A stretch of 64,000 nt of DNA from Ruditapes philippinarum (lineage: Eukaryota). Numbering within the stretch: position 1 is the first letter of the stretch; the number at the start of each line of letters is the position of its first letter. The DNA lies in NCBI RefSeq assembly GCF_026571515.1, contig NW_026852705.1, forward strand, positions 62,001 through 126,000, read 5' to 3'. Under the pieces are notes generated by a model, which worked only from the letters and a program-made list of their open reading frames with translations, was not told where the DNA came from and ran no database searches. Below, in pieces: positions 6,001-48,241 of this stretch. A program made the position numbers and the translations under genes.

Positions 6001-6739
6001 GAAATATCGAGATAATTTTTCAAAACATCTTACATGATTTATCGTAACTTGATACATTCCGAATAAAATATCGCGTTTAACATGTTCAAAACGATTAGCG
6101 TGTATCTGAAATTGATCATAAATGGCAAGATGAATGTTCCAGGTTTTTACTAGCACTGCTATTATGATATAAATACCATATTCGATATAAATATAATTTG
6201 AAAGAAGCCAGCAGTAACAGAAACATCATTTACTTCCTAAAACCCTTTATAAACACCATGGGGATACCGGAACGCGACCGCAGAACGTTTTTATATGAAC
6301 TCTATTAAAGTTTCTTTTGTTTCTAAATGTTTCAAATGTTGGCTCTATGTTTAAATTAGCAGATCATTTTAAATTGAAATCATATTTTTAAGAAACCAGC
6401 CACTCAGAGCATATAAGAAGTTTGGACAAACAAACATTCCCGAGACAGTTAAGTGAATGTAGTCTTTTTAATAATTAGAGATTATCAGATAATTTAATTA
6501 CTATCATAAAGTTTCATATTTGCATCTCACTTAAGTTCAGATCTTCTTAAGTTTACATTTTAAACAAAGGAAGATCTGGGTTTTAGTCAAATTTGTTCGC
6601 GTGAACTTCATTTTTAAAAAATGTAAAGAAACACGCATTAGTTATTTATTATGTATATTTATTAACATGCTATCTTGAGTAACAGTTAAAAATAACAACA
6701 CAGGTAATAATAACAACAGGATTTCCCACCTATGCTGGT

Positions 6740-6911
6740 NNNNNNNNNNNNNNNNNNNNNNNNNNNNNNNNNNNNNNNNNNNNNNNNNNNNNNNNNNNNN
6801 NNNNNNNNNNNNNNNNNNNNNNNNNNNNNNNNNNNNNNNNNNNNNNNNNNNNNNNNNNNNNNNNNNNNNNNNNNNNNNNNNNNNNNNNNNNNNNNNNNNN
6901 NNNNNNNNNNN
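6740..6911. other. Assembly gap (N run)
   Basis: Run of n characters. Confidence 1.
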
Positions 6912-7064
6912 CAATGTTTTTTTAAAAAAATATAATCAATTACCTATAAAGGAAACATACGATTACAGTTTTCGGAAAACCAGCGACATGAATAAAAATA
7001 TTGATTAAGTATCTTGTAACATTCAGACATAATTAATGTGCATGGAACGTTGTAGGATATTAAA

Positions 7065-8516
7065 ATGGATATAAAACCATCTGAAATATACTATTCACAA
7101 GACAGTATCAACAAATATTTTGATAGGAGGTCATCCCACAGGACACAGACAATAGGTCAAACACTAGATCAAGTTATAACTGGTAACTGTTCGATAACTA
7201 GCATACCTAGAATATCTATTTTGAAACTACCAGGAAAGCACAAGTGGTTTTCTGTTGACAATCGGCGTCTTTGGGTATTTAAACAACTTGAACGGTTGGG
7301 TTATTTAGATGCTATTAAAGTTGACTGCACCGAATTCAACTATTATCGGCATGGAAGAAAAATCACAACAAACAATGGAGGTGTTTCAATTCGAATCCGA
7401 GGTGACGGTCAGCCCGGTGGAGCCGCACACACATTGCCAGACAATTGTTACGATCAAATAAAAAGAAAGATTGGAAAATCACGGACAGAAAATGACGATC
7501 AACAGAAAAAGATATCGAGTAAAAGAGAAGTGCACCAACGACCTTCACCATATAGTACTGGCCAACCAACGGTGAGATCATCGTGCGAAGATAGAGAACC
7601 GTTCAAATCTTCAGCACCACAAGAAAAACAATCGGAATATCTATCGAATGCTAGAAAACATTATACATTACAAAGGAATTTGTCACTCTCACAAAACTAC
7701 AAGTATACTACAAATCCTTCATATTCTTTGTCATCTTATGCTGACAGAAAGGCAGAAACTTCTAATGACAAGAGTCTTAGTGAAAGTGACGGAGAAAGTG
7801 CAGGGTTTTCAGACAGGTTTAGGAAAATGCATGTTTCACACCCTGCAAAAGCATCGAGTAATCGTTCAGATTCATTAAACAATGTTGACCCTGGTTCAAA
7901 TGTTGTCACTCGAAGTAATCGGTACCCTTTTAATTTCAAACACGAAAATGATGCCGGTACTGAATACGGAGCAGCAGCATATAAAGGGTCATACAAAGCC
8001 GGAGTTGGTCTGCTGAGCAAAGCTGATACTATTTGTGAATCCAAGCCAACGACAAGACAATTAGAACCATCAAAACACCAACACCATGAAATACTTAAAC
8101 CTGAACGACCCAATCCTTCTTCTTCATATCAGAAAACATTTTCGAACGGAGTGCAAACTGTTCCGTCAAAAACAGTTAGACACATTGCCTCCCACAATAC
8201 TGCTTCTTGTAAGGTGAAATCAATAGAAGAAGCACAACCTCCTCGAGTCCAACCTTCAGTTGCTGTAACTAAGAGTGCCGATGCAGTTAAGGATGCACAC
8301 AGTGTGCCTATAAAAGGTATCTTCACATCAGCGTATGGTTCCAACAACTCCAGATCTGTCCCTATAGAAATAAGTCATAGAACAAAGAGTCGCCAGTCGT
8401 ACATCACGGAAGAACAAGTAGAACGAAACATGACACTATTGTTATATCGCCAATGGTACAGGGAGTTACTATCAGACACTTGGAGTACATATTCTTGCAA
8501 ATCAAGTGACAAGTAA
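7065..8516 (+). CDS. Intronless 483-aa protein: N-terminal ParB/Srx-fold-like domain plus Ser/Lys-rich low-complexity tail (paralog A)
   Basis: Long open ORF with good ATG context (aaaATGg) and a conserved paralog at 14197. Motifs PSEIYYSQDSI...IPRISI...WFSVDNRRLWVFK resemble ParB-like toxin domains (IRFSQ...IPPI...SLDNRRL). The domain call is from pattern memory. Confidence 0.85.
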   Translation: MDIKPSEIYYSQDSINKYFDRRSSHRTQTIGQTLDQVITGNCSITSIPRISILKLPGKHKWFSVDNRRLWVFKQLERLGYLDAIKVDCTEFNYYRHGRKITTNNGGVSIRIRGDGQPGGAAHTLPDNCYDQIKRKIGKSRTENDDQQKKISSKREVHQRPSPYSTGQPTVRSSCEDREPFKSSAPQEKQSEYLSNARKHYTLQRNLSLSQNYKYTTNPSYSLSSYADRKAETSNDKSLSESDGESAGFSDRFRKMHVSHPAKASSNRSDSLNNVDPGSNVVTRSNRYPFNFKHENDAGTEYGAAAYKGSYKAGVGLLSKADTICESKPTTRQLEPSKHQHHEILKPERPNPSSSYQKTFSNGVQTVPSKTVRHIASHNTASCKVKSIEEAQPPRVQPSVAVTKSADAVKDAHSVPIKGIFTSAYGSNNSRSVPIEISHRTKSRQSYITEEQVERNMTLLLYRQWYRELLSDTWSTYSCKSSDK

Positions 8517-9821
8517 AATGGTTTCCTGCGGGGAACATTTTTAATGATACAAAGATATTTCATTGAATTATTTTCAACATTGTTAGTGTGTGTGTGGGGG
8601 GGGGGGGTAAATAAACGTTTTTATCAAGAATATAGTTGACAATAATCGATCAATATAGAAGACTGGTGACCGTTGAAGACCGGAGAGACGAACATAAAAC
8701 AATTATTTCTTTTTAGAAAATGATTAAATAGGCCTACCATTTTAAGAATAATTCCGAGCAAACAAAGAATAAAGTAATCACCAAAGTTTACGCAGAAAAT
8801 ATCTCTATTAATTATGGCAGATGCCACTACGAATATTTTAATTTTGTAAATTTTCAGTATAAACAATTTATTGTTTGTAAAATTCGAGAAACATTGATAA
8901 TTTTCAAAGACATCATTCAAGTTTTTCCACCTTAAACGGTAAAATAATTATAGAAAATTAGAAATATCACGAAATAGTTTTTTGTTCTTAATTAGGTGTA
9001 ATTCGGACTAAATCTCTAGAAATTCTAACTTTAGAATCGTTTAGATAAAGATCAATTGTTTTGCCCTAATAAAAGGGAGAAGGTCTAGATCTGACGTCGA
9101 TTAAGCTCTTGTAATCATGATTTTATATAACCATTTATCTTTTTTTTATCTGATATAGATTAACAGTAAATAAAATTAATATATTTATAAAGGTAATATT
9201 AAATGTGTGCAGATTTTTGTGTGGTACATACACACATAAAATGTTCATGCAGATACATGTATAATGAAAATGTTTATCAAAATAATGAAAAATTTCAACA
9301 AAGGTCGTATACATTTTTAGGCTTCAAGATAGCCGGGTTGAAATTTGAAAAAATGGCCCATGGAGTCAATTTTCCAAGGTGTCAAATTTAATGTTACACT
9401 GGCAGTCAGTTTTATTAAACAAAATACAATGTATGTTTGTTTAAAAGTTGACAAAATTGAGAGAGAAAAACTTTATTATGCACTATAATGTATGTGTTTA
9501 ATTTCTATCAATATGTAAAACCAGAATACTAGTTAACATAAAGTTTTGAATCAATAATTGGTTATGTACAAGGTTTTATTTTGGTTCCATCGTGTACAAT
9601 TATCAAGCATTGAAAAAAATGTGATATTTGCTATCTTCCTGCAAACAAATTCGATGATTTATATCAATGTATAAAAGATAAATCAACATATTGAATAGAC
9701 CACAGACTTATTTACCTTTAGATAATACTTTAAAACTTCTTCAACTATGTCTTAGTTTGAAAAAAGTGGTAGTTACAACTCTAAAAAAAAGTACAAAAAA
9801 GCTTCTTAAGCGTTTTATTTT

Positions 9822-9961
9822 TTAAGAAACCACTACAATTTTCAGTCTATGAAGTCTAGCTTCCACTGCTAAGAGTGGAGCTAATGAGAATCCTGTGTGC
9901 ATCCTCTGGTGAGAAGGGATTGTCTGGATGATTGTAGTTCACAATCAGATTATCGTTACAT
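9822..9961 (-). pseudogene. Orphan, frameshifted duplicate of the last exon of the galectin-like gene
   Basis: Aligns to exon 22293-22433; 5-bp deletion near the exon start (cgttacat vs cgtttaggtacat); no upstream exons in unit A. Confidence 0.8.
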
Positions 9962-10480
9962 CTGTAGATGATTAGAAATAAACTAAATAATTTGTAAAAG
10001 CTATGTAAGCGATATCATTTAGATGTATAAAGATTATGTTTTGTAATATATGTATAAATTTCTACAGGCTTTTTTATCATTGTATATGCATATAGGCATT
10101 AATTGTTATTAAAATTCAATTGTAAAAGTAATTTAGTAAATTACTATTGTCATACTAATATAACATATAATACATATTCATGCCAGTCTTCAGAAGTGTT
10201 CCTTGAAAATTTAGTACAAGTATTGTCCGATATAGTCTGGCGTGTGTACTTTAAATCCTGTATATTTGCATAAGCTATAATTGTTGTAGCTATACATTGT
10301 TAGCACCAACTTTATTCACGTCACATTATTTGCCCGATCAAAGCATTGTTGGCCACACCAATTTTTTTTGCACTACCAATATATTGTATTCAAATTAAAC
10401 GGTTAGTAATTATAATTACCATTATAGAAGAAGAAGAAGAATTTTTATTTCAAAATCCACATGTAAACAACAACAGTATG

Positions 10481-13500: not shown

Positions 13501-14196
13501 AATCGCCCGAATTGTCACGATTGCAATCGGAACTAGGTCGGCTATTATCATTTATCCGAAGAGTGACGGAAAGGGTCGAAAAGTTGCGATTGGCACGATT
13601 GCAGCTGGTTTCCCGTTCAATCATGCACTAACAAATGTAAGCAGAAAACCACCTAACCGGAACAACTTTTCCAAAAAAAATCAGATCATATCGAGATTAT
13701 ATTTCTAAAAGAACACTCACTAAAGTCATATGAAAAGGTCTGACAATCAATATGTCAACCTGATACAGTTCATAAACATCTCAAATCAACAAGTGAGTGT
13801 AGTTCTTTTAATAATTAGAAATTTGCGCTCTCAATCATTCAGTGTATCAGATAATTAATTATCATTAATTTTCAAAACATCTTTGCCTGAACTTTATTTT
13901 TGAAAAATGTAAAGATACGCTTTAGACATTTTTTCTGATGTAAATTTAGAAACAAAAGTTAAAAATAACAAAAGGATTTTCCACTTTATTAGGTTTATGT
14001 GTTTTATCAGATGTTATCTACATCTCTGGTTTTATATAATTGTGACACATGTTTTTGAAAAAAAATACAAGTCCACTATAAAGGAAACATACGTAACAGT
14101 TTTCGGAAAAACCAGGGGAATGAATAAAGGCATCGATTAAGTATTTTGTAACATTCAGACATAATTTATGTACATGGAACGTTGTAGGATATTAAA

Positions 14197-15486
14197 ATGG
14201 ATTTAAAACCATCTGAAATATACTATTCACAAGACAGTATAAGCAAATGTTTTCGTAGGAAGTCATCCCACGGGACACAAACAATAGGTCAAACACTAGA
14301 TCAAGTTATTGCTGGTGACTGTTCGATAACTGACATACCTAAAATATCTATTTTGAAACTACCAGGGAACCACAATAAGTGGTTTTCTGATGACAATCGA
14401 CGACTTTGGGTATTTAAACAACTTGAACGGTTGGGTAATATAGATACTGTAAGAGTTAAATGCACTGTCTATAACTATAATCGACATAGTAAAAAAATAA
14501 CAACAAAGAATGGAGGTGTTTCAATTAAAATCCGAGGTGACGGTCAGCCCGGGGGAGCCGCGCACACATTGCCAGACAATTGTTACGATAAAAAAAAGGG
14601 AAACCTTGGAAAAGTAAAAAAAGAAAATGACGATCAACAGAAAATGATATCGGGCAACAGAGAAGTGCAGCAAGGATCATTTCCATCCTATATAAATAGT
14701 ACTAGCCAACCAACCGTGGGGTCATCGTGCGAAGACAAAGAACCATTGAAATCATCTGCACACCAAGAAAGTGCAGGTTTTTCAGAAAGTTTAAAAAAAA
14801 TGCACGTTTCAGACGGGGGAAAAGTATCATGTAAAAGCTCAGGCTCATCAAACAAGGATGACGTTGGTACAAATGTTGTCACTCTAAGTAATCGGTACCC
14901 TTTTAATACAAAATATGAAAATGATGCCGATACTGGATACGCAGTAACAGGAGAATATAAAGGGCCATACAAAGCCAGAGTTGGTCTGCTGACCAAAGTT
15001 GATACTATTTGTGAATCCAAGCCAACGACAAGACAATTAGAACCATCAAAATGCCAACACCATGAAAAACTTCGAGCTGAACGTCCCAATCCTACTTCTT
15101 CTTATCAGAAAACATTTGCGAACGAAGTGCAAACTGTTCCGTCGAAAACAGTTAAACACATCGCCTCCCACTATACTGCTTCTACTAAAGTGAAAACAAT
15201 AGAAGCACAACCACCTCGAATTCAACATACAGTTGCTGTATCTAAGAGTGCCGATGCAGTAAAGGATGAACGCAGTTTGTCCATAAAAGACATCTGTACT
15301 TCAGCGTTTGGTTCCAACAACTCCAGATCTATCCCAGTGGAAATAAGTCATAGAAAAAAGAGTCGTCAGTCGTACATCACGGAAGAACAAGTAGAACGAA
15401 ACATGAAACTATTGTTATTTCGCCAACGGTACAAGGAGTTACTACCAGAAACTTGGACTACATATTCTTGCAAAGCAAGTGATTAA
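14197..15486 (+). CDS. Intronless 429-aa ParB-like domain protein (paralog B)
   Basis: Open ORF colinear with 7065-8516; keeps YYSQDSI and DNRRLWVFK; lacks a 171-nt in-frame segment present in A. Confidence 0.85.
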   Translation: MDLKPSEIYYSQDSISKCFRRKSSHGTQTIGQTLDQVIAGDCSITDIPKISILKLPGNHNKWFSDDNRRLWVFKQLERLGNIDTVRVKCTVYNYNRHSKKITTKNGGVSIKIRGDGQPGGAAHTLPDNCYDKKKGNLGKVKKENDDQQKMISGNREVQQGSFPSYINSTSQPTVGSSCEDKEPLKSSAHQESAGFSESLKKMHVSDGGKVSCKSSGSSNKDDVGTNVVTLSNRYPFNTKYENDADTGYAVTGEYKGPYKARVGLLTKVDTICESKPTTRQLEPSKCQHHEKLRAERPNPTSSYQKTFANEVQTVPSKTVKHIASHYTASTKVKTIEAQPPRIQHTVAVSKSADAVKDERSLSIKDICTSAFGSNNSRSIPVEISHRKKSRQSYITEEQVERNMKLLLFRQRYKELLPETWTTYSCKASD

Positions 15487-17180
15487 ACTTGCCATATTTT
15501 AAGAAAATTATATTTATTCATTTTAGTAAAGAGTATAAAACATTTGAATGGTGTGTAATTTTTATTATTTATTGAATCAAAGATGCTTCTTATCAGTTGA
15601 GATGTCATGGATTTTCAAAGATTTACTACAGGACATATACATATGCTAGATTGCTTCAATGCCATCATTGTCATTGTGATATTTTTACTTAATTCTCATT
15701 TGTTTATATAAAGTTAGTCATAAGTACTAAAATAAAGTGATCTTAAACAATAAAATCGTTCATTGTTGAACATAGAAATGCAAACATAACTTAATATATG
15801 GGACTGGAAAATGTAATGATACATTTTGAGAAACCTTGCATAAAAATTGTGCAGCTGGAATGTACATTTTTGCGTTTTCTTTTTCAAGAAAGGCATGATA
15901 TCAATTCTATATATATAACAGATGACGTAACTTTTGTGACTCATGGCACTTAATTCATGGAAACATAATATATTTAATATTATTGAATCACGCATCGAAT
16001 TTTACCGTGGTAATGAACATCTTTTTACCACCTAAACCTAGACTTACTTTACGGCATCTCAGAAAGGATATATTAGCGTTCCACTCTAAATTTGTTTTAG
16101 TTCCGGCAGACAAGGCGGCCAATAACATAATCATTGTATGACGTATTCATTATATAAATGTTTTACAAAATGAACTTAACAGCACCAATACTTATTCTAA
16201 AACCGTTCTTTCTGAAAGAGATATTGTGAACAGTCATATTTCTAGTATTTCTAACTTTAAAGTACGTGTTGATGAGAAAGAGCTTAAACTTCCTATCATG
16301 TACTGGATTCCAAAATTACATAAACATCCATATAAAGCCCGCTTTATTGCTAATTCTTTATCTTGTACTACCAGTAATCTTTCTATTTTATTGACTTCTT
16401 GTCTTACTGCCATCAAGACACATGTAATTAGATACTGTGAAACTGTTTATGAAAATACGGGCAAAAATCTGTTTTGGTCTATTAAAAATTCAACTGAAAT
16501 TTTAGATAAGTTTAAAGTTAAGAATTATCAAGCTTCATCTGTAAGTACTTACGATTTCTCTACCTTATATACAACATTGCCGCATAATCTTATAAATGAT
16601 AAATTAGTATCTTTAATTCAAAAAACATTTGCAAGAGAACAGGTCACGTTTCTTGCTTGCAATTCAAAGAAGGCTTTCTTTACCAATGTTATCATTAAAC
16701 AATATACAATGTGGACCTGTGACGAAGTTTGTAAAGCACTTTCTTTTTTATTAGATAACATTTTTGTCAGGTTTGGTAATACAGTTTTCAAACAGGTAAT
16801 AGGCATTCCAATGGGAACTAATTGTGCCCCCCTGATAGCTGATTTATTTCTTTATTGCTATGAGAGGGATTTTATGTTAAGTCTTTCCCCTACTTCGCAT
16901 CAGGAAATTATACATGCATTTAACAACACTTCCCGCTACCTAGATGATATTTTTAACATGAATAATCCTTATTTCGATCAATTGGTTTCTAAAATATATC
17001 CCAGTGAACTTAAATTGAATAAAACTAACTCTTCAGACGTTATTACATCTTTTTTAGATTTAAACATTTCTATCATTAACAATACTATAGTAACTAAAAT
17101 CTACGATAAAAGAGATGATTTTGATTTTAATATTGTTAACTATCCACATTTAGATGGAGATGTACCTCATGCTACATCAT

Positions 17181-19912
17181 CACCGTAGGGAACGTGTTAC
17201 AGTATCGCGTTTTTCGGTTACAGTATAGAATTTTCAAGATGGAGGATTATTTGTGGGAAGAGAGGTAGGTGATTTTTATTCAGGTCCATACTACTAGTAG
17301 TGTAGTTTCTAAAAGATGTTTTTGTGCTTTGCTTGTAAGGAACAGAATCCGGTATCTAGTCATATATTTCTTTAGACCCTGCACCGCAGATTTATCTCTT
17401 TATGCTCTCATAAATGTGCGGATTTGACGGTTTAAAAATTTGAATCGAGAGAACAACGCATTTTTCTCCCATTCCGACATTATTTAAGCATGTCTAGATA
17501 AAGTAAATCTACAAAACGTTAGTCCTTTATGTTTAGAAACGTTTATAAACGTGTATAAAACGTTTTACCAGTTGAACCTATTTTCCTGTTGGTAAAATGC
17601 GTTTGAAAAAATAAACAATGTTACAGTATAGAGCGAGGTTAATTTTGAATGGTTACAGCATAGACCTAGCGACTTTGATCCAATTTTGTTACAGTTTATA
17701 CCCAGATTTCGGTTACAGTTTAGATACTTGCCAAATTTCAAACAAAGTTCGTGTATCCATTATTTTTATGAAATAACTCATACCTTTCTATTTAATACAT
17801 TCTTGAAAGGTTGTATTACTTTTTTTCTTCAGCAGAAAAGTGATAGTTTGCTATTTTTCTTACTTTAAGTTTCAGATTGAGACTTTTTGCAGAATAAGTA
17901 ATGTCCTAAGTAAGGACTGTTTTCACGACAACAACAGTAACTTTTATCGAATTGTAATGAGAGAAGAAAGATTATTGCTTGATTTCATTACACATTATAA
18001 TAATGCCTATTAGTAATAAAATAGAGAAAAAAGAATCCTTAACAGAAGTCCAACACGGAAAACATGAAAATGTTGCAGGCTCAGTTTGACTAAACCTGTT
18101 CATGGACGGTAGTGGTAACTGCAAGCTACCATTCACGCCTCCTAGCACCGATTTCAGCAGAATTCACATTATATATGAACTTGTACACTTCAGATTTTTT
18201 AACATCTGTGGATGTGTTCATATGGCGGTTATCATGGAACCTTCAATGTGACACGTTATTGCCATTCTATGAAAAGCGGCATATTACCCCCAGGTTAAAA
18301 ATTGCGTGTGCCATAAACGAGAATACAATGAGTGAAACTAAACAAAATGAAATTTTGAGAGGGGATCGGCGGTTATGAAGCCTGCATACCATAGATAAGC
18401 TGTCAAAAGACACAATTAACAATCAGGCAATACCCTAAGAATGATTAAACAGTATTTAAGTGAGCAATACTGCAACCTTAAATTCTATTTTAAGTTGGAA
18501 TTTCCATCTACCATAATGTATTTTGTAAGTATTTAAAAGGGTTTATGAACATTTTCAATTTTGTTGTGTTGGAATTTCTTTAGGGATTCTGTTTAACTCT
18601 ATTTTGTTACGTTTGGCTTTCTTGGATTTTAAGTTTCAACGACACTGAGGTCATGTGAAAACATTCCTGCTTTAGTGTAAAGAAAGACCCCAGATACCCT
18701 TTGTGAAACATTTCAGACACGAGCGCCTGACTAGAACCACCGACCTTCCGTAAATTAGCTTGATAGATTCCTCACATACAAAGAATCCAAAGTCATGATT
18801 GGATTTCAACTACAGCAGTAAATGAAAGATGATTTGAAGTCGACGGCCTTATCCCGACTCTGCCACTATTATGTACCTCCATCACTAGAGAAGATATTGT
18901 AATTGTCTGACCTTAATTTATACTCTATAACTTTCAATATTATTTTCTTTTTCAGAAACATGAAAACTGCTATACAGGATGTCTGAAATAAAAAAAACGA
19001 CTTTTAATTTTATAATGACAAAATAATCGTAACTTCAACAAAGAAGCATTCGAAATGACGCCATGATCATGATTTGATTTGAATGTTTTTGGTTCGAGAT
19101 GAGAAGGGTCTTTAAACATTGGCTTTTTTCAAAATCTATGTTTTGGGTTTTCGTATCCCCGATTGCAACCGAAACCATTTGAACAACTTAATTGGTAGAA
19201 AGTCATGTAAATTTCATCACATTTAGTCAAGTAGTTATACTGAGCGGATGAGATTGCACACACATGTGTACGACAGACGGCCGAAAAGCCATCGTGCCAA
19301 TAAGCTCACAGAGATTTAAAAGTCTATGTAACATTCATACATTTTACCTAGTATAATTATATAGAAAATATCGAAGTCTAAACTGTAACCGAAATCTGGG
19401 TAGAAACTGTAACAAAATTGGATCAAAGTCGCTAGGTCTATGCTGTAACCCTGCACAAATTATCTCGCTCTATACTGTAACATTGTTTATTTTTTCAAAC
19501 GCATTTTACCAACAGGAAAATAGGTTCAACTGGTCATTTACTTTTATAAACGTTTCCTAACATAAAGGACTAACGTTTTGCAGATTTACTTTTTCTAGGC
19601 ATGCATAAATAATGTCGAAATTGCAGAAAAATGCGTTGGTCTCTCGATTCAAATTTTCAAACTGTCAAATCTGCAAATTTATGAGACAATATAGCGATAA
19701 ATCTGCGGTGCAGGGTCTGAAGAAATATATGACTAGATACCGGATTCTGTTCCTAACAAGCAAAGCACAAAAACATCTTTTAGAAACTAAACTACTTGTA
19801 GTATGGACCGGAATAAAAATCACCTACCTCTCTTCCCAACAAATAATCCTCCATCTTTAAAATTCTATACTGTAACCGAAAAACGCGATACTGTAACACG
19901 TTCCCTACGGTG
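17181..19912. mobile_element. Non-autonomous DNA transposon, ~545-bp TIRs, CAC...GTG ends, 5-bp TSD ATCAT (Transib-like signature)
   Basis: Left end CACCGTAGGGAACGTGTTACAG is the reverse complement of the right end finishing at 19912; the inverted match spans ~17181-17724 and ~19377-19912; ATCAT at 17176-17180 and 19913-19917. Confidence 0.93.
18640..18870 (-). mobile_element. Degenerate SINE nested inside the TIR transposon
   Basis: agaaccaccgaccttccgtaa..agct.gatag..cctcacat matches the SINE at 10481-10590 and 39513-39775. Confidence 0.6.
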
Positions 19913-20342
19913 ATCATATGGGGTGTATATTTCTCAATTAATTAGATTTGCTAGGGCGTGAAGTCATGTTGATGATTTTAATGAACGCAATTTATTTATT
20001 ACTAACAAACTTCTTAAACAAGGTTATCGCTATCATAAATTGCGTAAATATTTTATTAAGATTTACCATCGTAATTCAGACTTAGTTTTAAAATTTAATT
20101 ATAATTTAAAAACTCTTTTACGACAAGGTTTTACCAAGCCTGACTTCTATGGAGATGTGGTTTACAAACTTCGTAGGATCATGGGTCATAGTAATTTTTC
20201 TGCCGTCTTCACTAAAATTATCAAACGGTTTATTAAAAGAGGTTATGACCCAATTATTTTAAGGCATACCGCATGCTTGGTGTTCAACCCTTTTACAGTT
20301 GGATGCTACGCTTTCCTCTTTTGATTACATCTGACGGACCAA

Positions 20343-20413
20343 GTGGGAGACTCTATGATGGACAGTTCTTAAAGCCCTTTGGGGACTGAATTGTCTTAAT
20401 GTTCGTCTTCTGC
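20343..20413 (+). promoter_or_regulatory. SECIS-like element (type II fold) overlapping the RT stop codon; 3' core degenerate
   Basis: ATGA 20355-58, 12 nt, AAA 20371-73. Helix II GACAGTTC/GAATTGTC, apical mini-stem CCC-TTT-GGG, helix I GTGGGAGAC/GTCTTCTGC. The 3' core reads TAAT (20397-400) instead of TGAT. Confidence 0.65.
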
Positions 20414-20626
20414 CTTGCTTCGTCGGGCCCTTGTAGGTAATTTTCTTGTTGCTCTGCCTTCCTTTAAGGCATCGAGTACTTTGGTAATGGTCATTAGGCA
20501 GTAACTTTTTCTACATATTTATATAATTTTGTATGTGTTTTATTTATTTCGTCTAATGTAACCATGACCATTGTTAGAATTTCACTTGGCGGGGATTCAT
20601 TTTATATACATTTTCGTGTGTCATTC

Positions 20627-20736
20627 AGGAACATTTTGGGGCTAAGAGTGAGGTTTGGCGCGCCTAAAACCGGTTTAAACTCCCAAGTGGTTTAACTACC
20701 ACTATCCGTTCCAAGGCGGTACCCCTTTGTGTTCCT
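20627..20736 (+). ncRNA. Twister-ribozyme-like fold (P5-type permutation) in the retroelement 3' region
   Basis: Closing stem AGGAACAT..GGGG/CCCC..GTGTTCCT; P2 GAGT/ACTC; L1 TAA and GAGG; P3 AGTGGT/ACCACT; P4 CCG/CGG with 8-nt loop TTCCAAGG; both pseudoknots can be paired. P1 is weak. Confidence 0.55.
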
Positions 20737-22292
20737 TCACGTGTTTTTCTTGTCTGTATTGTTACTTGTTTTTGGATGTTTACATGTTTTGTTATGTCTG
20801 TCTTGTTGGATTGTCGTTGACGGTAGGTATTTTCTCCCCCCCCCTTCCATTTTTAACCCCTCCCCCACCTTTTCACCCGTACAGTCCTTTTCCCTTTAAT
20901 TCCCTTATGGGCCTGTTTTTGTTTATATTATTTCACATTACATGTCCCGCTCCTTTCGCCCTTGTGTCCACTCCAGGTACTTGTTTGGTGCCTTCTGGGT
21001 GTCCTTCTTGGGTGTGTCCGGGGGCGGCGTCCAGTGAACGTTGCCTTTGCCTTGTTGATCTTTATTCTTGTTATTTCTTATCTATGTACATAAACGGACA
21101 TTTTATTTTTTCCTTGTTAAGATAGCATTTCATAAAGTTTGTGTTATCAAGTGTATGCAATGTAGGCCCTACTTTTTTCATGTTAAGTAATATTTGTGTG
21201 TGTGTGGGGGGGGGGAGATACCAGACTTACTTTTTTCTCTATGCCTCTTCTAAGAATTTTTATATTTATATTTTTAACTATTTTTATTCGTATTGGACAT
21301 TGTTATAATAATTATATGCAACAATGCATTAGAAGGCAGTGTTACAATGTTTGACTTACTCGTACATTCGGATTATTATAGATATTATCTGATTTAGTTT
21401 TAAAATAAGACACAATACTAAGAGGTTTAGATGTCCTAAAATCACCAAAATTTAAACAAATAATTGGTCCAATTTATAATTTCTGTGTATCATACTAATG
21501 ACTCCTTGCTGGAAATTCTAACTTTATAATCGTTTAGATATAGACCAATTTTTTGCCCTAGTAAAAACGAGAAGGTCTAGATCTAACGTTGATTTTAAAA
21601 AAAAAGCTCTTGTAATCGTGATTTTACAGAACCATTTATCATTTTTAATCTGATATTGATTAACAGTAAATAAAATTAATATATTTATAAAAGTAATATT
21701 AAATGTGTGCGGATTTTTGTGTGGTACATACACACATAAAATGTTCATGCAGATACATGTATAATGAAAATGTTTATCAACATAATGAAAAATGTCAACA
21801 AAGGTCGTATACACTTTTAGGCTTCAAGTGAGCCGGGTTGAAATTTGAAAAAATGGCCCATGGAGTCAATTTTCCAAGGTGTCAAATTTAATGTTACACT
21901 GGCAGTCAGTTTTATTAAACAAAATACAATGTATGTTTGTTTAAAAGTTGTCAAAATTGAGAGAGAAAAACTTTATTATGCACTATAATGTATGTGTTTT
22001 ATTTCTAACATAAAGTTTTGAATCAATAATTGGATATGTACAAGGTTTTATTTTGGTTCCATCGTGTACAATTATCAAGCATTGAAAACAATGTGATATT
22101 TGCTATCTTCCTGCAAATAAATTCGATGATTTATATCAATGTATAAAAGATAAATCAACATATTGAATGGACCACAGACTTATTTACCTTTAGATAATAC
22201 TTTAAAACTTCTTCAACTATGTCTTGGTTGAAAAAAGTAGTAGTAACAATTATACATAAAAGTATAAAGTAGCTTCTTGAACGTTTTATTTT

Positions 22293-25200
22293 TTAAGAAA
22301 CCACAACAATTTTTAGTCTATGAAGGTTTCCACTGTTAGGAGTTGTGCTAATGAGAATCCTTTGTGCATCTTCTGGTGTGAAGGGATTGTCTGGATGGTT
22401 GTAGTGCACAATCAGATTATCGTTTAGGTACATCTGAAGATGATTAGAAATAAATTAAATAATTTGTCAAATCTATTTCAGCGATATCATTTAGATGTAC
22501 ATGTATAAAGATTATGTTTTTTATAAAATATATATAAATTTCTACCAGCCTTTTTATCATTATATATACAAATAGACATAAATTGTCATTAAAATTTAAT
22601 TGTAAAAGTTATTGACTATTGTCATACAAATATTACATAAGATTCAAGATTCAAGATTACATTCATGCCAGTCTCAATAGTGTAAATTCAGAAATGATCC
22701 TTGAAAATTAAGTACATATGTACAAGTAAATGTCCATTGTCTGAAAATCTGCTACATGTGAAAAACGCAAGGCTAGCTTCCTTTTCGATAATTAATTGTT
22801 TGCTCCTCTTTTACAAAAGTAATAATATACATGTATGAAAAAAGAAAAGAAAATTTCACACGAGATGGTCATCTTTATCATAGAAAAGCTTTATAATAAA
22901 AAAAGCTTTCGAAATATATTAACTGAAAGCTTTACTGTATTTTCAAATTGTAAAAGTTAACTGTTCATATTCTAAACTTTTGTCTTCTAGAAAAATGTAG
23001 AATAAAGACCAGATATACAGTAATACATTTCGACTTATACAACACACGGTTTGTAAAAAGTGGCTGATAAAGTACAATTTCATATAGTTTAGATGATTCA
23101 TAAGTTTCGTTTCAATATCTTGTACATTAAGACACTGCTGCCGTTTGGAATATCGATATCATATAAAATTATGATATTGACAATTTTCAACATGATAAAA
23201 CAATCAAAATCACATAATGTATGGTTTACATACGTCAGTGCCATTTTCCAGTGGTCTGATGGTCAGCTTGTGAATAGTGTCAACTGACAGCACAATATTA
23301 GCTCTAACAAAGTCCTTCTGCCAGACGCCATCAATCTTATGGTCAAGTTTCAATTCCTGGATACTAATATCTATCATAACTTTAAGGGCAACATTACCAC
23401 CATCCATTGAAAGAAGCACATATATCCTAGAAATTGAAAGACTTTGAAATATTTTGAATATTTTCTTCATATAACCTAATCTTACAATGAGCGTTAATGA
23501 ATTGGTGTTCATAAAAGACTACAGAAATCAGTATCATTTATCTTAAATAAATGGCCTAAACTAAATACTCATAATAACAAGGACAGAAATATTTTCCCAC
23601 TTTTGCGAGAGCAAAAATTTCATAATAAACAATTAAGAAATTTTATTTAAATAGTTATCACAGTGGGCTAATATATATAAAATAGTCGAGTTTTCAAATT
23701 GATGAGCCTACATCAATTTCATTGTAACATTTTAATGGGATATTTTGAACTACAAAGAACGTTCGATTCTTTGGAAACAGTCGTAGCAACTTCGTGTGTC
23801 TTGCAAAAATGCGTCCCTAAAAACAACACTCCGTCAAAATTAACCAATAAACATTCAGTAAGTCATTATTATCATTTCCGTTTGTATTTCAACTTTATAA
23901 TTACAACTGGACATAATCTGATTGTAGGATTACAAATCATTGACATAAAATCAAAATATGATTTTACGAGTGACAAGATAAACCGTCATGCATATATGTC
24001 ATACAGGTCGACTAGTGCATATAGAGACATACTGGCAATGGTATAACGTCATTGTTTTGCAGCACAAAATATCCATACATACTTACTTAATATCTGTACT
24101 AGGAAATGAAAACGATACGTCTACTGAGCTACCAACACCCAACAGCCCAGGTAGTTCCGACTTATATGAACTTGTATTTACCAGCATCTAGAAATGAAAG
24201 TGATATAATTATGGTTTGTGCAGTGGTATTTACGAAACCAATTTAAAGAAAAAGAAAAGGAGCATACATCCGCCTTTGGACTATGCTCATATTCAATAAC
24301 ATTGCAAACGATAACATAGCAATTTTTGTTTATATGCTGTGTTAATGGCGAATAAGAAGTATAGATTTTGTTAAACAGTCTTCAAAATTATTCACATCGT
24401 ATTATCGTTGTTTTAGTGGTGACAAAGATCTTAAATCTTTTATTATTACAGGTAGGTTATAAATTTGGTTGGTATATTTATCAATATGCAAATGCAAATA
24501 AGAACAATTTCCATCTACCGACTGGAGTTACTAATGAGTAATTTTGGACTCTCTTCTCATATAATTTGACCAACCAATTGCATTAAAGTTTAATTAATGA
24601 AATAAACACAAAATAACAAAGTGTTAAAAAACTGACGAAACATTGCCAATTAGTATACGTGTAAGTAAAAACTGCCTAAAACAAAAGTTACGCTAAGAAA
24701 GAACATGAAATAAAGAAATTCACTAAAAACAATACTATCACGAAAAAGTTGATGTAGATCTGTGATATTAACACATTGGTGAGATCAACGCGAGTCGGAT
24801 TTGCAATATGAAAGAGAGAAATAAGTAACCTCAATGTAGTTTAACGTATCTTTATCAATTATTTTTTTATTAGCATGTTAGAATGGAAATAGATATTAAT
24901 TTATCTTGCATTATAGTATAAAAATGCAAGACTTTCGTGATTATATTCTTGCGCATTTGAACTCCAACTGCATTATTCTACAAGTCAACAATACACTCAA
25001 AATTGATATATCTATTTCCTAAACAAAGCACCTTATCGACAAAAATAAAACATCAATTTTAAATTAAAGATACCAGCCTGAATTAATAACATAAGAAAGC
25101 AGATTTTTCGAACAGCATCGTATATAATATCTGAATTGGAAAACTGAAAATCAAATTATTGAAAAAGAAAAAAAAACATAGAAAAAAATAATTCTTACCG

Positions 25201-32250: not shown

Positions 32251-32882
32251 ATTTCAATTCTTCAACAAGGTATTCTGTTACTAGTAACTTCCAGGTCCTC
32301 ATCTCCAAAGCAGTCTTGCTTATCACATTTAGTGATAGCTCTAGTTAAATTTAATATTATAAAATTTATAATTATTAGATGTAAAAGAAGTTAATAAAAG
32401 TGTTACTTAGAGGGACATTTGCAAGTTTAATAGAATTTTTGTAAACAACCTTAATTTGTGCTTTTCATTTTGAAATGGCAAATAAGTTAAAGTCCATATC
32501 AAAAGAATCATACATATTAGCAAAAAGACCTGTCTATTTGAATTCATGAACAGTCAACAGAAAAAAAATTATTAAACAGGAATAATCTAAAATAAAGAAA
32601 AAATATTAACATATTTATGTTATGCATTCTTATTTATATTGTGGTAATTAAATTCATTCAACCAGTAAAACTTGCAATAAAGTCATCAATTTGACCTTTA
32701 TAACTTAAAAGTTGGTGTAATTTTAGATACAACCAGAATAAAGATTTTTAACAAGTAACAATTAAATTAAATAAAGTTATATTGTAGAGCCCCTCACACG
32801 TTTAATACGGTAGTTTATTGTCTCATCAATGTTAGAATATAAAATATGACAGTATACAAAAGTACATGATACACCAAAATGT

Positions 32883-34680
32883 TATGATATATAAATGCAT
32901 TTGTTTTTTTTCCTACACATGATATATAAATGCATTTTTTTCCCTACACATGATATATAAATGCATTTGTTGTTTTTTTTCCTACACATGATATATAAAT
33001 GCATTTGTTGTTTTTTCCCTACACATGATATATAAATGCATTTGTTGTTGTTTTTTTCCTACACATGATATATAAATGCAGTTGGTTTTTTTTCCCTACA
33101 CATGATATATAAATGCATTTGTTGTTGTTTTTTTCCTACACATGATATATAAATGCATTTGGGGTTTTTCCTACTTATGGTATATAAATGCATTTTATTT
33201 TCTACACATGATATATGAATGCATTTGGTTTTTTTCCTACACATGATATATAAATGCATTTGTTTTTTTCCTGCACATGATATATTAATGCATTTGTTGT
33301 TTTTTTCCTACTCATGATATATAAATGCATTTGTTTTTTTTTCCTACATATGATATATAAATGCATTTGGGTTTTTTCCTACACATGATATATAAATGCA
33401 TTTGTTTTTTTTCTACACATGATATATAAATGCATTTTTTTCCTACACATGATATATAAATGCATTTGTTTTTTTCCTACACATGATATATAAATGCATT
33501 TGTTGTTTTTTTCCTACACATGATATATAAATGCATTTGTTGTGTTTTTTTCCTACACATGATATATAAATGCAGTTGGTTTTTTTCCCTACACATGATG
33601 ATATAAATGCATTTGTTGTTGTTTTTTTCCTACACATGATATATAAATGCATTTGGGGTTTTTCCTACTTATGGTATATAAATGCATTTTTTTTCTACAC
33701 ATGATATATAAATGCATTTGGTTTTTTCCTACACATGATATATAAATGCATTTGTTTTTTTTTCTACACATGATATATAAATGCATTTGGGTTTTTTCCT
33801 ACACATGATATATAAATGCATTTTTTTTTCTACACATGATATATAAATGCATTTTTTTCCTACACATGATATATAAATGCATTTGTTGTTTTTTTCCTAC
33901 ACATGCTATATAAATGCATTTTTTGTTCCTACACATGATATATAAATGCATTTGTTTTTTTCCTACACATGATATATAAATGCATTTGTTGTTTTTTTCC
34001 TACACATGATATATAAATGCATTTGTTGTTTTTTTCCCTACACATGATATATAAATGCATTTGTTGTTGTTTTTTTCCTACACATGATATATAAATGCAG
34101 TTGTTTTTTTTTTCCTACACATGATATATAAATGCATTTGTTGTTGTTTTTTTCCTACACATGATATATAAATGCATTTGGGGTTTTTCCTACTTATGGT
34201 ATATAAATGCATTTTTTTTTTCTACACATGATATATAAATGCATTTGTTTTTTTTCCTACACATGATATATAAATGCATTTGTTTTTTTTCCTACACATG
34301 ATATATTAATGCATTTGTTGTTTTTTTCCTACTCATGATATATAAATGCATTTTTTTTTCCTACATATGATATATAAATGCATTTGGGTTTTTTCCTACA
34401 CATGATATATAAATGCATTTGTTTGTTTTTTTCTACACATGATATATAAATGCATTTTTTTTCCTACACATGATATATAAATGCATTTGGGTTTTTTCAT
34501 ACACATTATATATAAATGCATTTTTGTTCCTACACATGATATATAAATGCATTTGTTTTTTTCCTACACATGATATATAAATGCATTTGTTCTTTTTTTC
34601 CTACACATGCTATATAAATGCATAAGGGTTTTTTCCTACACATGATATATAAATGTATTTGGGTTTTTTTTCTTACACAA
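32883..34680. repeat. Minisatellite, ~33-42 bp unit cctacacatgatatataaatgcatttg(t)n
   Basis: Directly visible; unit length varies in the T-tract. Confidence 0.98.
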
Positions 34681-34714
34681 CCTTGATATTCTTACATTTG
34701 TATTTTTCTTTCAG

Positions 34715-37700
34715 AAATGACTATAGAAGTGAATAAAGACAACTGTGGGGGTAATTTGAACATAGATAATATATGGGTGCTTCACCTGAACTATTATGGT
34801 GCAAAACTAGGAATGGGCACTAGTAGACGAGCAAACTCTTGTCTGTTCAATATATCATCATATAACAGTAATCCTGCATTAGAGATATGTATTTTAAACT
34901 ATGACTACGAGTCATGGGATATAGCTTGTGGAAGTCTGAAGATATATATAGGCACATATCCTTTCTTTGATTTCCCAAGTGTGAGTGTCTTACCAAACTT
35001 ATATGTTTCATTTCTTTTATACATGTAACATGTAAGCAAACTTGCTCAAATAAGTATTTCTTTTATAACATGAAAGTAAACTTTCCTAAATTAATATGTA
35101 AACACTGGGTTATATCTTGGTAATTCTAGGCATGCTATTCCTTAATAATTTAAAAAGTCAATAACATATATACAAATGTACAAAGATAAAGTTCATAAAA
35201 TTCACTGTATTTTTCACATTTTACTTTTATTATATGTTGTAGATAAAATAACTTACACTTAATATCTGCATTGTTTAATCTAGTCCATCATTCATCTACT
35301 GACAGAATCAGTAATATTTTTAGCTCACCTGAGCACAAAGTGCTTAAGGTGAGCTTTTGTGATCACATTTTATTTTAAGCCGCGTCCATCAATGATTGTC
35401 TGTTAATGCGTCCATGCGTCCAGCGTCAACTTTTTTACAAACGACTTCTTCTAAGAAAACAACGGGCCAAATTTGATGAAATATTCCTGGGATGTTCCTT
35501 AGCATGAAGCTCTACTGAAATCGTTCGAATGGTTCTACTCCAGTGAGCATCTGGGTCAGAAGGGCTAAAAATAGTTTTTTAAGATAAAGTCTTTAATGAA
35601 CGCCCGGGGTTCATTGATTTTGATTATGAACATATAGTAAAATCTTTAAACAATCTTCTTTCTGAAGATACAAGGCCATGCGCTTTAATATTTGGTAAAT
35701 GGTATCATCTTTATGTCCTCTCTGACACAGCCCAAATATGGAAAAACCTTGTTAACACTCTAGAGACTATTTGTTTTGTTCCAAATATCCTGGAAATTGG
35801 TCAGAAAGGTTGTTTGTATGATTTCTAGCTCAACTTCAAATATAGTTCATCTGTGGTCAAAAACTAGGTCACACAGTCCAAATATGGGAGAATGTTGCTA
35901 ACACTATTTATGTCAAAATATCCTGGAAATTAGTCAGACAGGTTGATTAGATGGTTTCTAGGTCATGTTTGAATATGGATTATCTGGTGTGAAAAACCAG
36001 GTCACTAAACCCAAAACTATGGAAAAACATTGTTTACATTCTAGAAGTAATATTTTTCTCATACATAACCTGAAAATTTCAGAAAGGTTGTTTTAATGAT
36101 AACTTAAGCTCAACTTTGAACATGTGTCATGGAAAAACTTTATTTCCACTCAAGAGGTTACATTTTTAGCCCAAATATCCTGGAAATTGATCAGAAATGT
36201 TGTTTGTATGATTTCTAGTTCAGGTTTGAATATGGGTCATTTAAGGACAAAAAGGTCACAGCACATAAAAAGGCATACTTATATGGAAACACCTTATTAA
36301 CATTCGCACTACATGAATTTCAGGTATAGGGGATACAGATATGAATGTTATAATATCAATTTAAGTTTATGGCATTTTATTTGCCTTTCATTCATTGCTA
36401 ACAATATTTATTCAGAGCCTCAATAATCAGTTGAGCGATATAAGGGCCATCATGGCTTTCTTGTTAAGTCATTCTTGAACCACATAGTGCCTATTTTTTG
36501 GTTCCACAGGATTAATGATTAAATTTTAAACCATTTCAGATGCACCATTGTACGAGCTTTAGGCCGCTATGTACTAGTGAGAAGAAAGTGTTTTTTCAAT
36601 ACATGTATGACAGAGCTCTTCACATTATGAAAAAGGACATTAATATAAAGTTTGATATCTACTTACGAAAAAAATTAGGTAATGTTTATTAAGCTCGGCA
36701 TGTTTTGCAGAAAGTGTTCACAGAAAATGTAGAACTATTGACATGGCCCGCATGGGGGCGTTGTCTATATTTGGTTTCCAATAAGGTCATTAAAATCAAT
36801 TACTAATAATCTCTTTAGCCTATTACCAGTTTTATTATCCAGCGCTGAGAAAAGTACAGCATGCTGCCCCTTGGATAGCTGTTGTTTTTATTGGTCATAA
36901 AGTGTCCTCATCTAAAAGTTAGTCTTCTTGGAGAAATTACGCCTTGTGTAAGGATCAAACAATTGGTCCCTGGATAATTAGTTTGTTACTTGCCCTATTG
37001 AGCCAAAGGGATGGACTAGTACTATACAGTAAGCAAACAATGATTAGAACATTTGTATCATTTTAAGGACTATATACATAGTCATATTGCTGAATAATAT
37101 AGAAGAAGTTAAAATTTCTAAAAATCATAAAAAAATATATAAAAAATACATAATACATGTTTGTGTTTCAGAAACAACAACAAAATTAGTGTTGACTACT
37201 GGCTCACCATCTGTATCATCTTCTGGCAGAGGGAAGGCAGGTTTTAGTATTATATGGATCATTCTTATAATCATTGGAGGAGTCCTGGCGTTTATATTCT
37301 GTACAGCTTTTTGGTTCTATTGTTGTTGTTATAATGAAAACGAAGGTAAGATAACTATTGATTTTGTTTGTTTTACATGTTTCACACTTTCTCTGTTATT
37401 CTGATGAAGGATGGTGGGGGTACCAGATTATAATAACTCTATATTAAATGTAGCCAGTGAGAATGACCTGTTAATGCCACCTGTACAAGGTGAGGCTAAG
37501 CCTTATATATATTCATGAAGTCTTACTAGAAATCTACACGGTTGAGTTATTGATTTTAAACTTTTTAAATTGAAACCTATTAAGAAGAAAACAAAGGACT
37601 GAACCAATTATAAAGTAGGTAAAGCCCTTGATACAAATAGCTTACCACTTTTCTATAGTATAATTATGTACAGTATATAAAATTTATCTCCTGACCTTCC

Positions 37701-46198: not shown

Positions 46199-47305
46199 GA
46201 TATTAGCAATTAAGTACATTTGTATTACAATGGTTTCATACCTTTAACTTGGGAATATTATACTTTTAGTATATATATCTATGTTAACATGGAATGTAAT
46301 TTTCCTGCCATGTATCATAAGAATATTGAACATAATAATGATGGACTAAAACTCTACACTGGCAAATCTCTATAATAACCTTGGAAGACGGACACTTATC
46401 AGTTGTCAAGAATAGAACTTTGTTAGATGAGTGCTTAAAATAACAGATTTCTTTAAAAGCCAAATATGTCTCAATTGCCTGCTGTCAGTTTTATTTCTCA
46501 AAAGCTTTTGATTGTTCAGCTTCTTATTATGTACAGCTTCCAAAATATAGTCGTTATGCTAACTTTCAGAAGACTATTGCATTATAATGTTCACAATCTG
46601 AAATGAACATTTATATGTTTTTAAATCTGAAGCGCAAACGAAGAAACGAAGATACATCTACACGTCGCATATCATGTTCATTCATTAAACAAAGTGTGCG
46701 TGCACATGCGCGCGCGCGTGTGTGTGTGGACCCCGACATGTCTCCATTCATGTCCTTAAAGGTTATTACATTCCAAAAGTTGACCTATAAATTTTGAAGT
46801 CAGTAATTCACTAGATATGTATGCTAGTTTTTTGTAATGCTTACAATTTTGATTTACGGGAGGCCAATGATACCATTATACGCATCGTGGAGACCATTAG
46901 TTCTGCTATTAAAATACCGATGGCTATCTGCAGAATACCGGTAATTTCTATCCAGACGTTAAAGTGGATAAAACAGTTTGAATACTAATCGATTACCGCC
47001 ATATCACAGAGGACAACACTACAAAAGCCGATCCCGTCTACCAACGAAGCCGATGTTTATCTTACATTTTATTTGTTTAAAAAGCAATCAGAATATGTTC
47101 AGATTGTTAAATATATCGTAGTAACAGATACAGGTTTATTTGGATTAAATTTAGGGATGAGACCAATCAAGAGCTTCATTTTGTTTCATATAGAGTCACG
47201 TCTGGTTAGGTCTCTGAGGAGATCTATCTCTGATTTTAATAAAACTCAGTCATTTGCTTCTGCTCTTGTGAAGTTTATTATCACACATGAGTTTGTGCAT
47301 AGAAG

Positions 47306-48241
47306 ATGGCGGACGAAGCATATTATACCGTATGGCACATCGTGTATATTACAATAGCCATCCCGACAGTGTTTGGAAATGGGCTAATTTTGTACAGCGT
47401 TGCGAGGTTTAAAAAGTTAAGAAGTAATATTCGCATTCTCATAGCAAATTTGGCAGTTTCGGATTTAATTGTCGGTGCTATTTTGATACCAACAGACATG
47501 CTGTCGGACTTTTTTGGATGGAAAAGTAACAAATACGTTTGCTTGTCTTGTCTTGGAATGTTTGTTCTTAGTCTAGGTACGTCGTGTTACAATCTATTGT
47601 TAATATCAATAGAACGTTTTATTGCTATCTATTATCCAATGCGAGTGAAAACGATAATAACTAAAGCAAAGATGGTATTCATGGTATCTTTGGGTTGGTT
47701 AATTGTAGGAATCAATAGCTCGGTACCTTTTTATGGTGTGAACAACTTTACAAACTCTACAGAATGTGCTCACAATGTTGTTTGGCCACAAGAGTATCAA
47801 AAAAACTGCGATTGGCAACTTATCAGTGCACTTATAGTAAATTTTCTATTTTACGCAATAGTAGTACGGATAGCTTTAAGAAAAGTTCAAATGGGAGACA
47901 AAATTGAAGGTAATAAAAACTTCTGCATACACTCGAAGGCGACAGTTGATTTGCACCATGTTATAACAATGGTTATCGTGCTTGGGACATTCGTTATATG
48001 TTGGTTACCCTACTTTATCCTCAGTGTCATCGTCACATTTTCGAACACATCTTACTACCAATTCGTGAAGCGATGCACGTTGGTTCCAGGTCTCTGCAAC
48101 TCGGCTGTAAACTGGCTCATCTACGGGTACAGAAATAAAGAATTCAGAAAGGCTTTCAAAACTATATTGAAATGGAATGTTTGTTGTAAGGCTAAAAGCC
48201 GCTCACCACAAAATGTAACGTCAATTTACCGTGCTAATTAA
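47306..48241 (+). CDS. Intronless class A (rhodopsin-like) GPCR, orphan
   Basis: Seven hydrophobic segments; GN (TM1), NLAVSD (TM2), C at TM3 start, ISIERF..I.YP, W (TM4), F.ICWLPY (TM6), NSAVNWLIY (TM7), helix 8 EFRKAF. Confidence 0.95.
   Translation: MADEAYYTVWHIVYITIAIPTVFGNGLILYSVARFKKLRSNIRILIANLAVSDLIVGAILIPTDMLSDFFGWKSNKYVCLSCLGMFVLSLGTSCYNLLLISIERFIAIYYPMRVKTIITKAKMVFMVSLGWLIVGINSSVPFYGVNNFTNSTECAHNVVWPQEYQKNCDWQLISALIVNFLFYAIVVRIALRKVQMGDKIEGNKNFCIHSKATVDLHHVITMVIVLGTFVICWLPYFILSVIVTFSNTSYYQFVKRCTLVPGLCNSAVNWLIYGYRNKEFRKAFKTILKWNVCCKAKSRSPQNVTSIYRAN

Follow-up and report, generated by a model that had tools for sequence, protein, structure and literature searches.

The closest described systems are Naiad-Mmer and Naiad-Scon, two selenoprotein PLEs of clams (PMC8557442). 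Craig et al. (2021, PMC8557442) place a Sec residue at position DKA+8 in each of the four published Naiads that encode selenoproteins. In the account of Naiad-Mmer, the SECIS overlaps the first stop codon other than UGA, and a UGA 7 nt upstream was taken as the stop on spacing grounds; the published FASTA sequence and Fig. S3B of the same work differ by one G at the stop register (PMC8557442). A eukaryotic-type SECIS placed over C-terminal codons has been described for GPx4 of fowlpox virus (Mix et al. 2007, PMC1802603). This coding-region element was functional but weak in mammalian cells. No coding-region SECIS was found in human in that study, and the arrangement appeared to its authors to be unique to viral selenoproteins (PMC1802603). 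The minimum distance between UGA and SECIS is cited as 51-111 nt (PMC3316567), and the GA pairs that stand in tandem in the SECIS core are held to be invariant and required for SBP2 (PMC2761289, PMC3316567).

The window, i.e. the whole stretch of 64,000 nt that was analysed, contains one broken copy of an element of this type (Table 1). Like Naiad-Mmer and Naiad-Scon, it combines an RT with the DKA motif, a UGA at DKA+8 and a SECIS directly behind the RT (PMC8557442). By eye, the order of the RT motifs is the same as in Naiad-Mmer, and the 3' ends of the two elements match closely. The two differ in the 3' arm of the hairpin, which reads UGAU in Naiad-Mmer and UAAU in the window, and in one extra T of the window copy, by which the UGA stop comes three codons sooner. 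Unlike Naiad-Mmer, the window copy is truncated and interrupted. Kinship with the clam elements makes a marine mollusc the likely host. The locus is a dead member of a published class. With a probability of about 75%, its hairpin is read here as the Naiad SECIS, situated in the 3' UTR behind UGA 20322 as the stop codon, probably weakened by an A.A pair in its core, and translated in sister families.

Table 1. Features of the Naiad copy and of its hairpin (positions in the window)
Feature	Position	Strand	Remarks
5'-truncated Naiad RT, N-terminal piece (DKA motif, RT core)	15955..17180	+	no endonuclease
In-frame TGA at Cys site, eight residues past DKA	16139..16141	+	known Naiad Sec site
Inverted-repeat element inserted in RT, 2732 bp	17181..19912	.	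TIRs of about 550 bp, 92% alike; CAC...GTG ends; TSD ATCAT (5 bp)
RT C-terminal piece	19913..20324	+	ends in YAFLF at TGA 20322-24 (likely true stop)
Copy-specific TGA, family TGC (Cys)	19959..19961	+	not a family Sec site
Extended basal stem bearing the SECIS, about 110 nt	20326..20435	+	z -3.76
SECIS	20347..20409	+	helix I 20347-51/20405-09; helix II 20360-68/20388-96; mini-stem
SECIS core	AUGAU 20355-59 with UAAU 20397-400	+	apical AAAG 20371-74
In-frame TAA across apical adenosines	20370..20372	+	real stop in sister families; probably unreached here
A replacing G of 3' GA (A.A for A.G)	20398	+	common to most related sequence aligned
3' untranslated tail of element	20410..20750	+	3' boundary approximate; aligns to L002 up to 20655; 3' end of Naiad-Mmer similar by eye

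Assignment to Naiad was based on the DKAANN motif and on the RT, which matched the full-length homologue P0292 at 58% and the homologue P0009 at 63%. The Pfam model RVT_1 gave a weak match below the cut-off (E 0.004). Homology to the related Naiad locus L002 covered 15955-17178 (74% by blastn) and 19913-20655, on both sides of the inserted element. In a tblastn alignment with P0292, a Cys-type protein of 974 aa, the copy was covered from residue 454 onwards and is thus 5'-truncated; the N-terminal GIY-YIG endonuclease and the CxC linker region are absent for this reason. In the relative L013 the corresponding N-terminal part is retained and carries two TGA at the Sec sites of the endonuclease. 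A pseudo-LTR or a tandem or inverted arrangement was not found, as the window contained no second 3' or 5' part. This does not exclude membership in Naiad, because truncated insertions that stand alone are frequent in the group. The inserted element is non-coding, with no ORF of at least 100 aa inside. Its long TIRs, its CAC...GTG ends and the 5-bp target duplication presumably recall Transib/RAG-like transposons. Together, the 5' truncation, the 2.7-kb insertion and the private TGA 19959 characterize the copy as broken. In an RT tree calculated without L001 and P0100, the window copy was grouped with L002 (80% identity) with support values of 95/94, nested in a long-tailed clade (100/97). Families with a DSMMxPT tail were grouped with 99/98 inside the same clade.

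Opposite TGA 16139, 101 of 124 alignment rows of homologues had C and 9 had W, and the site was uncovered in 14. TGA was also present at this site in L002 and L013, both of which carry TGA at conserved Cys sites. The SECIS of intact family members would recruit SBP2, so that an upstream UGA such as that at 16139 would be read as Sec. TGA 19959 was considered as a new Sec site and rejected, since the family has TGC here: C stood in place of A19961 in about 99% of the depth in run X1 and likewise in run X3, and run X21 had C in 157 of 169 reads. The database proteins P0002, P0009, P0020, P0022 and P0278 have W at Naiad Sec sites, which probably stands for TGA translated in a table-4 gene call. 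W at these sites may serve as a cheap marker for selenoprotein elements in protein collections.

A SECIS-like hairpin with helix I, helix II and an apical mini-stem had been proposed in an earlier note on this DNA. All three parts were recovered, and helix II was paired at nine of nine positions. The proposed spacing was found as well: ATGA (20355-58) is followed after 12 nt by AA (20371-72) and, after another 25 nt, by AA instead of GA (20398-99). The segment 20330-20425 folded with -36.7 kcal/mol (z -4.76), and none of 200 shuffled sequences was equally stable. When the hairpin was checked with a covariance model, as the note had advised, Rfam SECIS_1 (RF00031) matched 20347-20409 with 35.6 bits (E 0.0021). 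The gathering score of 35 was narrowly passed, and SECIS_1 was the sole Rfam family to reach its gathering score in the whole 64 kb. Measured against RF00031, the hairpin has the 5' RUGA (as ATGA), 12 nt (10-13 nt are allowed) to the unpaired apical AA, helices I and II, and an in-frame UGA upstream at a conserved Cys position (TGA 16139); the 3' GA of the tandem G.A/A.G pairs is replaced by AA. Judged by its sequence and predicted fold, the hairpin is homologous to SECIS elements but has a non-canonical core, so that it does not qualify as a canonical SECIS.

Related Naiad loci with the hairpin were available from public contigs (L001-L004 and L007, with L010 as a marginal case). SECIS_1 matched at the homologous place in all five with 28-43 bits, in three of them above the gathering score; the SECIS_1 scan of L010 gave no match. 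In an alignment of six hairpins, 96% of the 102 cells were paired, compared to 47-62% in slid controls, and none of 500 shuffles reached this value, a test that is inflated because the six rows represent five families and L004 and L007 are near-copies. Absence of covariation in helix II had been named in advance as evidence against a SECIS; helix covariation was present, with 13 of 17 pairs changed on both sides.

A long basal stem that extends beyond the SECIS consensus is common to all six loci (z -4.3 to -5.0 in the five relatives). Its conservation would also fit a merely SECIS-like hairpin that is kept mainly as a retrotransposition signal for recognition of the 3' end by the RT. This explanation is very improbable, as five of five relatives retain RUGA, its distance of 12 nt to AA, and the 3' GA, and L002 and L013 have TGA at conserved Cys sites. 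Both roles could coexist in one hairpin.

No Naiad relatives were detected in any of five scans of viral contigs, and searches of plasmids and phages gave zero matches. A 2-kb contig filed as a Paenibacillus genome carries the Naiad RT and SECIS of L003 and is likely to be a contamination. L013 (G001:C448) and the other loci of the series L012-L019 form head-to-tail Naiad arrays with six in-frame TGA. The contigs of L012-L019 lie in a bacterial MAG and are likely to be host DNA. Behind the RT of these Naiads, the core UGA of the SECIS is the first stop to be reached, and translation up to this codon would unwind helix I.

The hairpin had been placed by the earlier note inside the end of the RT ORF, with the TAA stop overlapping the apical adenosines and the ATGATG of the core encoding the terminal MM. 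The overlap, the reading frame and the MM codons were confirmed; the TAA as the real end of the ORF was not, because TGA 20322-24, which the note did not mention, precedes it in the RT frame. This TGA is located 16 codons ahead of the TAA and ends 30 nt before the core. As the likely stop it would leave the SECIS in the 3' UTR. The residue opposite TGA 20322 is variable and not Cys. Among 95 newly listed homologues, six close ones, with 77-89% identity over the query, share this LF end; database ends at TGA are set by gene callers and not by ribosomes, so the six shared ends indicate a conserved TGA and not termination. The Cys-type protein P0292 likewise ends at LF.

The position of the first stop varied among relatives. 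Counted on DNA from the A of the core, it was TGA at -33 in the window, TGA at -23 in L002, TAG at -9 in L001, TAA at -9 in L003, and TGA at +1 in L004 and L007. Six of the 95 newly listed homologues ended at LF, 2 ended three, 15 eight and 53 sixteen residues beyond it; 8 had other lengths and 11 had no anchor. Clade-wide, stops were found at -33, -23, -9, +1 (the UGA of the core itself) and +15 nt relative to a fixed hairpin. Because stops vary across relatives and homologue ends, the tail appears to be dispensable, and it is the RNA that is conserved. The SECIS would be fixed just past the LF end of the RT throughout the clade while the stop codon slides along the hairpin. L002 and the window are one T apart, and the stop of L002 is a TGA matching 20332, again ahead of helix I. 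The idea that the register of the window copy is held by compensating indels was weakened, since a single T separates it from L002. The frame from DSMM to the TAA would represent an inherited or chance-restored register in this copy and not a required peptide.

Some observations speak against a position of the SECIS in the 3' UTR. No stop interrupts the frame between TGA 20322 and TAA 20370, and its register is that of the DSMMxPT families, with ULHLTDQVGDSMMDSS as the readthrough peptide; both listed variants of the 5' arm (20363 C>T and 20369 T>G) are synonymous in this frame, a result expected in about 1 of 9 cases by chance and drawn from 40 of 114 variant rows. These findings would be explained by true dual coding, in which Sec is inserted at UGA 20322 and translation proceeds through the 5' arm to the apical TAA; activity of a coding-region SECIS in cells is documented at a low level (PMC1802603). 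Dual coding in this copy is nevertheless unlikely, and its assignment in the earlier note is probably wrong. A UGA merely 30 nt from the core falls short of the cited minimum (PMC3316567), it stands at a variable non-Cys residue, and relatives with TAG or TAA before the hairpin, or with a shifted frame, indicate that the tail is dispensable. Unlike in the fowlpox virus gene, the overlap in the window consists of an open register behind a UGA, and real overlap is proposed for the sister Naiads.

Where sister families have no stop upstream, translation would run through the corresponding hairpin. Tails of the type FNCTPVGRxSDSMMxPT were found in 107 of 228 homologue proteins. The cluster of family A, P0132, has 4545 members. 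Of 67 proteins assigned to this family, 4 had W at DKA+8, 16 started just behind this site and 47 did not cover it; none had C. Because W marks TGA in the one family for which DNA is available, family A is likely to be a selenoprotein family. Cys occupies DKA+8 in family B (18 covering members) and in family D (4 covering members). A coding-region SECIS should have no stop between the Sec codon and the SECIS; TGA 20322 intervenes in the window, and the family A proteins show a frame without a stop ahead of the hairpin. Three proteins that are frameshifted or read through (P0371, P0382 and P0383) represent three frames and jointly yield AUGAU, UAAAG and UGAU without conflict. In the back-solved hairpin of family A, eight of nine pairs of helix II were forced and the ninth was possible, and the mini-stem had 6 bp. 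First back-translation tests, made post hoc, gave modest results: the count was 111 in 5000 shuffles for family A, and 33 in 5000 when families B and C were mixed. We infer from these protein data that the family A hairpin is a canonical SECIS, with the last codons in its 5' arm and the stop in its apical loop. Taken alone, coding overlap in the sister families is highly probable, and it is better supported than a working A.A core. Coding-region SECIS elements were seen by Mix et al. in poxviruses only (PMC1802603); the sister families provide candidates from cellular genomes. Stop codons at five positions on one hairpin make a rule for the distance between UGA and SECIS testable on natural sequences.

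The AA at the 3' side of the core had been attributed to decay after insertion, with the proposal to check whether the consensus has TGAT at 20397-400. Four runs (X1, X3, X21 and X23) were aligned to 19918-20520 at 82% likeness, a filter that favours window-like copies; runs with small shares were left out, and X23 contributed 24 reads only. A change at 20398 was absent among the listed variant rows (40 of 114). Since each listed row has a share of about 54% or higher in one run or more, G at 20398 is likely to be below that share everywhere. In the consensus of loose ends behind 20383, position 20398 was never G: X1 (42 records) and X21 (209 reads) had A there, and X3 (16 records) had T. Depth rose roughly tenfold from the 5' end of the aligned stretch to the hairpin, which means that short copies dominate the tally. 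Transcription of the element is not indicated by X21, because first mates were about equal on both strands and 73% ran on into unlike sequence. The consensus thus looks to be lacking G, one of three points named beforehand as evidence against the proposal, and decay after insertion is not supported, as most of the related sequence aligned is without this G. The core of related sequence is apparently AUGA/AA in the main, i.e. weakened or non-canonical, and the A would predate most copies. GA is kept in five of five related loci.

The A at 20398 is likely to weaken the element. Because the tandem GA pairs are held to be invariant and essential for SBP2 (PMC2761289, PMC3316567), a weak or dead element is favoured. 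The stronger version, that the A.A core has killed recoding and that a minority master with GA amplified these copies in trans, is possible at somewhat less than even odds; a minority of G is compatible with the dominance of short copies in the tally. Helices I and II are still fully paired in the window copy, and this copy carried an RT with TGA 16139 alongside the A, both of which argue against a dead SECIS. We take the 3' G of the SECIS to correspond to position 2n of a k-turn. Kt-23 of Thelohania solenopsae has A for G at 2n like the window hairpin, and this natural k-turn folds and binds L7Ae (Huang and Lilley 2014, PMC3985660). Unlike a SECIS with SBP2, Kt-23 is a ribosomal k-turn studied with archaeal L7Ae, and it is a precedent for a tolerated A.A only. 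It is doubtful that the family spread with a working A.A-core SECIS, within a clade in which the SECIS forms part of the RT gene's end (translated, closed by the UGA of the core, or freed by upstream stops). If true, a natural series of SECIS elements moving between coding sequence and 3' UTR would be available. A family-wide AUGA/AA core would, if true, be missed by SECIS searches that require GA, and would provide a natural test of the strictness of SBP2.

Beyond Craig 2021, a literature search that included few subscription papers gave no report in which the core has AA or a transposon shows coding overlap, and none of translated SECIS arms in Naiads or of a stop sliding along a fixed hairpin.

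The Naiad copy lies in a tandem duplicate with two copies at 6451-10218 and 13791-22716, which are about 86% alike. Each has a long ORF (7056-8516 and 14188-15486) without a Pfam hit. As Naiad is present in the second duplicate only, its insertion postdates the duplication or it was lost from the first. A single long ORF at 47303-48241 encodes a GPCR of the rhodopsin family (Pfam 7tm_1, E 1.6e-37). Tandem arrays are present at 56611-58161 and 32856-34730, with units of 22 nt and about 35 nt, respectively.
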